From: a virus
Lineage: Duplodnaviria > Heunggongvirae > Uroviricota > Caudoviricetes
Length of the DNA stretch: 10,100 bases
IMG/VR virus record: IMGVR_UViG_2693429634_000014
Coordinates: 1 to 10,100 of that record
Strand: one strand, 5' to 3'
The translations under genes were made by a program, and so were the position numbers. This document shows, piece after piece, positions 3,399-4,712 of the stretch; positions within the stretch are counted from its first letter, which is position 1; each line of letters begins with the position of its first letter. The notes under the pieces are model-generated. The model was not told where the DNA came from and did no database searches. It saw only the letters and a list, made by a program, of their open reading frames with translations.

Positions 3399-4712
3399 TC
3401 ATTCTCCAGTTCTGCCTGTATCACTGCCCACTTCATCCAGTCCCTTAACATCCTGCCATGGCCCGTCACCAAACCTGACCTGCAAATGCTGAAAAAAACC
3501 CTGAACCCGTGTGGCATCTTTGGGGTCAAGAAAGGTCAGTCCGGTGATGAGCGCACCATCTGTACCCGGGAACCAGCCATGGCTGTTTGTCTCAATAATG
3601 CTCGCCGGCCCCAGACGAAAACGGATTTGTGTCTCCCCCGGGTCCCCCTTCGGTCCCTGAGGTCCGGTTGCCCCCACCGGGCCAGCCGCACCTGTTTCTC
3701 CTTTCGGTCCCTGTGGGCCTGCCGGGCCTGCTGCCCCGGTGTCTCCCTTTGGACCCTGTGGACCTGCATTTCCCGTCAGACCGGTCTCTCCCCGCTCTCC
3801 CCTGTCACCTTTCGGCCCCTGCGGGCCTGCCGGACCAGCATCACCTGCCGGTCCCCGTTCGCCGGTTGCCCCGACAGGGCCGGTGTCACCGCGCTCTCCC
3901 TTATCACCCTTCGGCCCCTGAGGACCCGCGGGCCCCTGTTCCCCCTTTGGCCCAGGAGGTCCCACCACGGTGGGGATTCGGTTTACGGCGTCTTCCGCCG
4001 CTATCCTGCTTTGTTCCGCTGACTGTGCGCTTTCTGCTGACTCCCGGGCTTTTTCTGCTGCGGTCGTTGCATCCCTGGCTGCATTACCGGCTGCACTTTC
4101 TGCCGTCTTTCTTGACAATTCAGCATCTGCTGCACTTTGTGATGACTCACTGGCTTTTTGAGCGGCCTCAGAGGCCGAGGACGAGGACGCCTCCTCTGAC
4201 TGCTTTGCTGAGGCTGCACTTTCTGCCGCCTGCCGGGCTGACTCCGATGCATATCCTGCTGAAGTGTCAGCATGTGCAGCGCTCTTTTCTGCCTGACTGG
4301 CTGATATGCCGGCATTCCTCGCTGACGTCTCCGCCTCTCCGGCATTCTTCTTCGCCTCCTCAGCGTTACGCGCCACCTCTTCCACCATCAGTTCAAAACG
4401 TCGCAGTGCCTCCGGACGGGCATCATCCTCCGTCATGGCACCGAGAAAATCATTCAGCGTACCGGGTTGAGAATCTTCATACACTGTGATGGTCCCGGCA
4501 TGTGACGGCGGGAATCCTTCCACCAACAGAATGACGCTGTACTGACCGTACTCAACGTCCATGCTGTAACGACCGGCTTCATCCGGATTTTCAGAGGCCA
4601 CCGTGTTCACCACCACCGTGCTGCTGGTCCGTCTGGCTTTCAGTTGAATGGTACAGTTCTCTACCGGTTTTCCTGTGCCGTCTTTCAGTACACCTGAAAT
4701 CTTTACTGCCAT
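3399..4712 (-). CDS. stf: Side tail fibre protein, mosaic: lambda Stf-like N-terminus, Ala/Ser/Glu-rich low-complexity segment, collagen-like Gly-X-Y tract, distinct C-terminal domain of about 78 aa
   Basis: N-terminus MAVKISGVLKDGTGKPVENCTIQLKARRTSSTVVVNTVASENPDEAGRYSMDVEYGQYSVILLVEGFPPSHAGTITVYEDSQPGTLNDF is near-identical to lambda Stf as I recall it. Likely start is the ATG at 4712 (track begins at a GTG at 4718), with GGGGTGA upstream. C-terminal part is unlike lambda Stf. Confidence 0.85.
   Translation of the reverse strand: MAVKISGVLKDGTGKPVENCTIQLKARRTSSTVVVNTVASENPDEAGRYSMDVEYGQYSVILLVEGFPPSHAGTITVYEDSQPGTLNDFLGAMTEDDARPEALRRFELMVEEVARNAEEAKKNAGEAETSARNAGISASQAEKSAAHADTSAGYASESARQAAESAASAKQSEEASSSSASEAAQKASESSQSAADAELSRKTAESAAGNAARDATTAAEKARESAESAQSAEQSRIAAEDAVNRIPTVVGPPGPKGEQGPAGPQGPKGDKGERGDTGPVGATGERGPAGDAGPAGPQGPKGDRGERGETGLTGNAGPQGPKGDTGAAGPAGPQGPKGETGAAGPVGATGPQGPKGDPGETQIRFRLGPASIIETNSHGWFPGTDGALITGLTFLDPKDATRVQGFFQHLQVRFGDGPWQDVKGLDEVGSDTGRTGE
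3639..3962 (-). repeat. Collagen-like repeat: 36 uninterrupted Gly-X-Y triplets within stf (Stf residues about 251-358)
   Basis: Seen in sequence: translation GPPGPKGEQGPAGPQGPKGDKGERGDTGPVGATGERGPAGDAGPAGPQGPKGDRGERGETGLTGNAGPQGPKGDTGAAGPAGPQGPKGETGAAGPVGATGPQGPKGDP; the DNA shows the corresponding 9-bp periodicity (GGnCCnnnn). This is what generates the Pro-rich antisense ORFs 3629..4489 and 3739..3921. Confidence 0.9.

Follow-up and report, generated by a model that had tools for sequence, protein, structure and literature searches.

A phage-434-like side tail fibre of the EPclA type, with a coiled-coil and collagen-like stalk, in an Escherichia coli prophage

The gene at positions 3399–4712 (minus strand) of a 10,100-nucleotide stretch of tailed-virus DNA (Caudoviricetes; positions 1 to 10,100 of IMG/VR record IMGVR_UViG_2693429634_000014; hereafter the window) is very probably the side tail fibre gene of a lambda-like (phage-434-like) siphovirus prophage, and its product belongs to the already described EPclA type. 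The list of open reading frames (ORFs), the translation, Pfam matches and sequence identities together assign to the 437-residue product the EPclA architecture of PfN, PCoil, Col and PfC domains. Three Pfam domains, all above threshold, follow one another in the order PF08400 (phage_tail_N, residues 1–133, E = 8.7e-70), PF01391 (Collagen, from residue 251) and PF06820 (Phage_fiber_C, residues 363–426, E = 7.6e-37), and a scan against Rfam returned no match within or near the gene. The ORF comprises 437 codons from an ATG start (the protein begins MAVKISG) to a TGA stop at 3399–3401. A GTG two codons upstream, at 4718, is a possible alternative start; the ATG is favoured because the starts of the lambda, phage 434 and Sakai genes agree with it, and it is preceded by a Shine-Dalgarno-like run (GGGG-T-G).

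The closest characterized relative is EPclA ECs2717 from prophage Sp14 of E. coli O157:H7 Sakai, which is identical at 420 of 437 positions (96%) without gaps; one of the 17 substitutions lies in the collagen domain and two lie in PfC. It occupies the same place after J and lom and precedes the same 89-residue gene (ECs_2716), in an O157:H7 host rather than the relative of strain TB354 that carries the prophage studied here. The side tail fibre of phage 434 (UMO75364.1, CPT_434B_23), located at the genome position of lambda stf, is also 437 residues long and is identical at 423 positions (97%), again without gaps, with 6 of its 14 substitutions in PfC. Its neighbours are likewise J, a Lom-like gene, an 89-residue PfC gene and then an NleB-type gene, which is a pseudogene in 434 but intact in the window. 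The common form of EPclA has 437 residues, with a PCoil of 116 and a Col of 111 (Ghosh et al. 2012, Table 2, PMC3368898). The lengths found here equal these values, and identity to the Sakai/EDL933 EPclA exceeds 90%. The family, its domain plan, the collagen and coiled-coil conformation and the length polymorphism are thus already known from that 2012 publication, and the gene is annotated in phage 434. The fibre is widespread: 141 phage records contain a full-length match, mostly Stx1a, Stx2a and Stx2c converting phages, and the fibre together with the small ORF behind it is covered to at least 80% in 693 of 5426 complete E. coli genomes. Against this background, the observation made in a sequence-only reading of the gene, a lambda Stf N-terminus joined to a long collagen-like tract, is confirmed, and its interpretation as a mosaic side tail fibre is supported.

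Residues 1–94 (4431–4712, minus strand) correspond to a gpStfN-like tail-attachment collar domain, a beta-sandwich with a helix. A phmmer search matched them to the 'Tail fiber protein' of PDB entries 9E7M/9MGH, the collar domain of Ur-lambda Stf as resolved using cryo-electron microscopy (cryo-EM; E = 8.8e-52), which bears out the earlier proposal that the N-terminus serves attachment to the tail. The collar domain is the part that joins the Ur-lambda side fibre to the tail; 12 of these domains encircle the gpV/gpM junction and bear four trimeric fibres through flexible linkers (PMC12617516). By homology with lambda, the collar domains of the present fibre would clamp it at the junction of tail tube and tip in the same way, with a flexible linker next. 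The similarity reaches beyond the roughly 90 N-terminal residues originally recognized. Alignment with lambda orf-401, the N-terminal part of Stf, shows near-identity over residues 1–117 and divergence afterwards (78% identity over residues 1–153), so that the conserved block is better placed at about 117 residues. DNA identity to lambda stf is about 90% until approximately nucleotide 350 and collapses beyond it. Judged by these alignments, the fibre is a mosaic, evident in both protein and DNA, that shares solely the attachment module with lambda Stf.

Comparison with Ur-lambda Stf shows where the two fibres part. They share gene position, a collar domain and helix that are near-identical over residues 1–117, and a shaft that starts as a trimeric coiled coil. 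Ur-lambda Stf then continues as a long coiled-coil shaft with a hinge and a gp37-like distal region that binds OmpC, contains neither collagen nor PfC, and is followed by the gene of the chaperone Tfa, whereas the fibre in the window has a coiled-coil and collagen shaft, a PfC tip and a downstream PF06820 gene instead of Tfa. The distal features of lambda-type Stf, a protein of 774 residues, namely Pf2 repeats, a gp37-like tip and Tfa, are absent.

Divergence from lambda Stf starts at an Ala/Ser/Glu-rich coiled coil (approximately residues 118–250; 3963–4361, minus strand), delimited by its Ala periodicity, the loss of DNA identity and experimental work on EPclA. The 147 residues from 104 to 250 include 43 Ala, 25 Ser and 21 Glu, while Leu, Ile, Val, Met and Phe together account for 8%. 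Ala recurs with a period of 3.5 residues, at a power matched by none of 2000 shuffles, and the segment laid out in sevens reads x-x-A-x-x-S-A; this periodicity and pattern are those of a coiled coil whose core is made of Ala. Within it, residues 135–250 constitute the PCoil of EPclA, 116 residues of Ala/Ser-rich heptads almost without Leu, Ile or Val, and the coiled coil has been demonstrated experimentally for EPclA (PMC3368898). The stretch has the composition described from the sequence, but with its heptad periodicity it is not featureless.

The collagen triple-helix domain follows at residues 251–361 (3630–3962, minus strand), a 111-residue segment with five GPQGPKG(D/E) motifs that was delimited by a regular-expression count, a triplet table and PF01391. 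It consists of 37 uninterrupted Gly-X-Y triplets, a run that is beyond chance, with Pro at 18 of the 37 X positions and 22% charged residues. The earlier count of 36 perfect triplets was right about the uninterrupted run and one short in number, the last triplet, GET, having been left out since its T was put in the C-terminal domain. Recombinant EPclA from Sakai, characterized by circular dichroism, analytical ultracentrifugation and electron microscopy, is a trimer that dissociates when denatured; its collagen triple helix, demonstrated by circular dichroism, has a melting temperature (Tm) of 42 °C, its trimeric coiled coil is independent (Tm approximately 50–52 °C), its PfC trimerizes and quickly renucleates the helix, and in the electron microscope the protein appears as a dumbbell with a hinged stalk (PMC3368898). 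At 96% identity, the allele in the window is likely to adopt the same trimer, triple helix and coiled coil. One fibre would then be built of three chains, in which the Ala-cored trimeric coiled coil (from about residue 104 or 118 to 250) and the 111-residue collagen triple helix would form a thin, hinged stalk.

A collagen-like protein in E. coli might instead be a surface adhesin, like streptococcal Scl1/Scl2 or Legionella Lcl, that serves the bacterium in an animal host. Ghosh et al. left a bacterial role formally open (PMC3368898), type III effector genes adjoin the fibre in the prophage, and collagen-adhesin models of NCBIfam match the Gly-X-Y region in part. Scl1/Scl2 of Streptococcus and BclA of Bacillus likewise contain an unhydroxylated Gly-X-Y triple helix that is stabilized by charge and nucleated by an adjacent globular trimerization domain (PMC3368898), and BclA was matched in our PDB sequence search. 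These proteins, however, belong to the surface of cells or spores, carry a signal and an anchor sequence and have unrelated globular domains, and their likeness to the fibre is confined to the Gly-X-Y repeat. The NCBIfam matches fall far short of their thresholds: they scored 92.4 bits against a cut-off of 325, 86.5 against 500 and 69.4 against 400, and were limited to the Gly-X-Y and low-complexity region, so the collagen-adhesin assignment was rejected. With a lambda tail-collar domain at its N-terminus, a gene placed within a tail module, and a counterpart serving the lytic-capable phage 434 as its side tail fibre, the protein is very unlikely to be such an adhesin; nor did reading the sequence, with no predictor run, reveal a signal peptide or a cell-wall or outer-membrane anchor.

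Collagen-like tracts invite the suspicion that repeats were collapsed or expanded during assembly, and many database entries of this fibre family are indeed partial proteins at contig ends, where short-read assemblies often break. For the tract in the window, the chance of such an artefact, which the sequence-only reading had named as a concern, is negligible. Positions 916–10100 match the complete TB354 chromosome at 100% identity; TB354 is an E. coli isolate from chicken meat and a relative of the host strain, and its fibre carries the accession WP_053893782.1 ('prophage tail fiber N-terminal domain-containing protein'). Phage 434 and Sakai ECs_2717 share the length of 437 residues in gap-free alignments. 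Exact direct repeats in the collagen-coding DNA do not exceed 11 nucleotides, a length that by our reasoning should not confuse an assembler. Longer repeats are degenerate (a 45-nucleotide unit present twice at 80% identity, and 56-nucleotide copies at 61–80%), and the description of the tract as repeat-rich at the DNA level is correct only in part.

The expectation that fibre length varies among related prophages proved correct. Homologue clusters with PfN and PfC ends contain 4, 5, 8, 14, 15, 16, 19, 20, 21, 25, 26, 32 and 34–37 triplets, and S74-terminated relatives contain up to 38, in agreement with the lengths of 63–144 residues tabulated by Ghosh et al. (PMC3368898). The tract starts at residue 188, 210, 224 or 251 among homologues, and coiled-coil length therefore differs too. 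In all inspected length variants, the junctions lie within repeated motifs (GPQGPKG, GPKG or GAAGP). The first GPQGPKG motif is fused to the fifth in the 8-triplet form and to the fourth in one 14-triplet form; the second and third are fused to the fifth in the 19-triplet and 26-triplet forms, respectively; and the 32-triplet form has lost the block between two GAAGP copies. Stalk length would thus change when in-frame blocks of the collagen-coding DNA are lost between short motifs that recur in it, mostly the five copies of GPQGPKG, and unequal recombination or slippage between short imperfect repeats is the mechanism that these junctions suggest. Having several copies of the fibre in one genome may contribute: matches occur at up to 17 places per complete E. 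coli genome, with a median of 2, partial N-terminal matches being counted. In a three-allele comparison, synonymous and nonsynonymous codon differences stood at 16:1, 4:1 and 16:0 in the collagen domain and at 3:6, 3:2 and 5:8 in PfC; the numbers are small, and they hint at more tolerance of, or preference for, change in PfC than in the stalk.

The C-terminal PfC domain (PF06820; residues 362–437; 3402–3629, minus strand) is a characterized trimerization and helix-nucleating module, as established for EPclA (PMC3368898); it is the knob at the distal end, and it is presumed to contact a receptor. As the sequence-only reading held, it is unrelated to lambda Stf: comparison with lambda orf-314, the C-terminal part of Stf, revealed no similarity, and Pfam found no PF03406 match in the fibre. 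It belongs to a curated Pfam family and is not a well-characterized receptor-binding domain, the identity that would have spoken against the earlier interpretation. A search of PDB sequences found no solved relative of PfC. The fold prediction that had been suggested was carried out with AlphaFold2 on the 79-residue C-terminal domain and a 19-row alignment; the model, mostly beta, is of low confidence (mean pLDDT 64.3, pTM 0.44), a Foldseek search with it against the PDB yielded no match (best E = 2.2, TM ≤ 0.36), and no fold is assigned. AlphaFold likewise gave no confident model for the homologous domain of gp61 in a phi24B cryo-EM preprint. The alignment cannot be deepened because the family comprises only two near-invariant clades, the PfC attached to fibres and the stand-alone protein of about 89 residues, which are approximately 35% identical to each other. 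It is a small family, with 284 clusters in a word-indexed search and, in a set of 1.84 billion proteins, 91 representatives at 50% identity, mostly fragments. Separately, a metagenomic protein of 565 residues (P0282) carries 4–5 tandem modules of about 65 residues that resemble PfC in its C-terminal half (…VVVLDAD…GILxVRRADGTWxEIPALKG), with a collagen tract behind them. Other fibre proteins outside Escherichia may therefore contain PfC-like modules as internal repeats.

In the working model, PfC would trimerize, set the register of the three chains and nucleate the triple helix while forming the distal knob. This knob presumably touches the cell surface and would speed or broaden adsorption, with gpJ making the committed receptor contact; Ur-lambda carries four trimeric side fibres on its virion, and these accelerate adsorption (PMC12617516). 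A role in the virion is supported by the related EPclB fibres (Sp5 ORF67, which is ECs1228; 933W L0121; phi24B gp61), which likewise combine PCoil, collagen and PfC and are followed by an 89-residue PfC-only gene (ORF68 in Sp5). EPclB has been located on the virion as a tail fibre by immuno-electron microscopy at the Sp5 tail (PMC5155283) and by cryo-EM for phi24B (preprint). The parallel is limited: EPclB has 645 residues and two collagen domains separated by a Pf2 repeat, sits on a podovirus tail and is essential for Sp5, whereas the EPclA fibre belongs to a lambda-type long tail, and side fibres are dispensable in lambda itself.

Several points weigh against a functional, receptor-contacting side fibre. 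The display of EPclA fibres on a long-tailed virion is predicted rather than imaged, and both a receptor for such fibres and binding by PfC are putative. The related lateral fibres of lambda_2B8 were reported not to recognize BamA (phi24B cryo-EM preprint), and a search of the available literature on the function of the phage 434 side fibre or of lambda_2B8 returned nothing beyond a citation in that preprint. PfC is also unusually invariant for a receptor-binding tip, with only two narrow clades among the 1.84 billion representatives. Finally, an IS3 element with a group II intron lies near the fibre gene, and in the TB354 prophage, which is near-identical, the tape measure gene has a frameshift. 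This prophage copy may therefore be defective, which leaves the expression and assembly of this particular fibre putative.

The invariance of PfC raises the alternative that the domain acts only in collagen registration and nucleation, like the C-terminal trimerization domains of animal collagens or foldon, and that the adhesin lies elsewhere, for example in the 89-residue paralogue seated at the tip. That paralogue is a stand-alone PfC protein (3128–3397, minus strand; PF06820, E = 5.1e-36; PHROG 576) whose ATG lies 1 nucleotide past the fibre stop. A PF06820 domain that is 35% identical to the fibre PfC follows approximately 25 residues with a Cys-Gly-Cys motif; no solved relative of this ORF turned up in the PDB sequence search. 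The protein shares 97% identity with ECs_2716 and likewise with CPT_434B_24 of phage 434, the latter termed a tail fibre assembly chaperone by the annotators of 434. Compared with Sp14, the gene has 16 synonymous and 3 nonsynonymous codon differences, and the ORF is therefore a selected coding gene. In TB354, it is split by ISCro1.

Trimerization and renucleation are all that has been shown for PfC (PMC3368898), the domain is nearly invariant across hundreds of genomes, and the 89-residue gene, immediately behind the fibre, well conserved and under selection, accompanies fibres with a PfC whether the phage is long-tailed (434, Sp14) or short-tailed (Sp5/933W). A Gp38_N-like gene stands in its place in the only context of an S74-terminated, EPclD-type fibre that was examined, from Shigella. 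Gp38 of T2-type phages is a separate adhesin at the tip of the tail fibre. The C-terminal domain and the following gene thus seem to move as a unit, as Stf-C and Tfa do in lambda, and the 89-residue protein is probably a functional partner of the fibre PfC. A purely registering PfC is nevertheless unlikely. The homologous ORF68 is not essential for plaque formation or lysogenization by Sp5 on a laboratory host (PMC5155283), docking between PfC and the 89-residue protein is conjectural, and the 89-residue protein is itself almost invariant, which is atypical for an adhesin. We hold as similarly doubtful the fuller version in which the fibre tip is a two-gene device, with PfC registering and nucleating the helix and the 89-residue paralogue either docking or exchanging as the real receptor-contacting tip, or switching tips.

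The same ORF has also been viewed as raw material for the fibre. For ORF68 of Sp5, which is non-essential, Mondal et al. suggested a reservoir role in fibre variation (PMC5155283), and the ORF in the window could correspondingly be a silent cassette that swaps the fibre C-terminal domain through recombination or frameshifting and is not a functional protein itself. One chimera (P0157) joins the N-terminal half of the small ORF to the C-terminal half of the fibre PfC, rare 494-residue proteins (P0013 and P0014) are fibres frameshifted into the small-ORF frame, and this frame is open for 44 codons upstream of the gene (window 3128–3529, minus strand), overlapping the PfC-coding region in another frame. 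Such fusions and the chimera are, however, single-member clusters among thousands of normal copies and are probably mutations or sequencing errors, though compatible with occasional exchange of tips; 44 open codons in a row would arise by chance about one time in ten, which is not improbable; and the excess of synonymous changes, with an intact start codon close behind the fibre stop, points to a translated gene under purifying selection. A silent cassette is accordingly an improbable description of the ORF. Programmed frameshifting from the fibre into the small ORF was considered separately and found unsupported, the fusions being single-member clusters and the open stretch fitting chance; no frameshift signal was found in Sp5 by Mondal et al. 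(PMC5155283).

The neighbourhood is that of a lambda-type tail module, with genes I, J, lom and fibre in this order on the minus strand, as in lambda and phage 434. The gpJ central tail fibre, or host specificity protein (5444–8923, minus strand; 1159 residues), was identified from its ORF and the gpJ annotation of the identical TB354 locus, and the Lom/Ail outer-membrane protein gene (4777–5376, minus strand) from PF06316 (E = 3.4e-123) and the gene order of lambda and phage 434. A consensus scan placed a terminator-like hairpin with a T-run between lom and the fibre gene (4729–4750, minus strand). Lying downstream of this terminator, the fibre gene presumably relies on antiterminated late transcription, as in lambda. 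A second such hairpin with a T-run follows J (5406–5425, minus strand), and the two flank lom. Between tail genes I and J, a 116-residue ORF (8990–9340, minus strand) carries a lipoprotein-type signal (…LTGC); it has neither a Pfam nor an NCBIfam match, matches PHROG 914 (function unknown), is annotated in TB354 as a shorter hypothetical protein, and is possibly a moron such as a superinfection-exclusion lipoprotein.

Beyond the 89-residue gene, an intact 326-residue type III effector of the NleB family of arginine glycosyltransferases (1971–2951, minus strand; PF24688, E = 1.2e-170) adjoins the tail fibre module, with an EspO fragment beside it at approximately 1712–1891, as annotated in TB354. 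An IS3-family element (851–1656, minus strand) consists of orfA (1330–1656) and a truncated orfB (851–1330) and contains the ALIL pseudoknot of IS3 programmed frameshifting (1259–1375, minus strand; Rfam RF01497, 119 bits). The orfB of this IS629/IS1203-like element is interrupted by a group II intron element, with the junction near 916, at a site that is empty in TB354. Positions 1–915 of the window are 100% identical to one end of that intron element. Annotations of its matches include an ltrA reverse transcriptase/maturase, and the element is present on many E. coli chromosomes and plasmids.

The prophages that bear EPclA fibres disseminate genes for Shiga toxin and type III effectors among E. 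coli, which gives the fibres some practical interest. Phage 434 offers an easy laboratory system in which to study the receptor and structure of PfC and the role of the 89-residue paralogue. If the two-gene tip were real, it would represent a novel type of tip or chaperone module for tail fibres, built on a fold without a solved structure.

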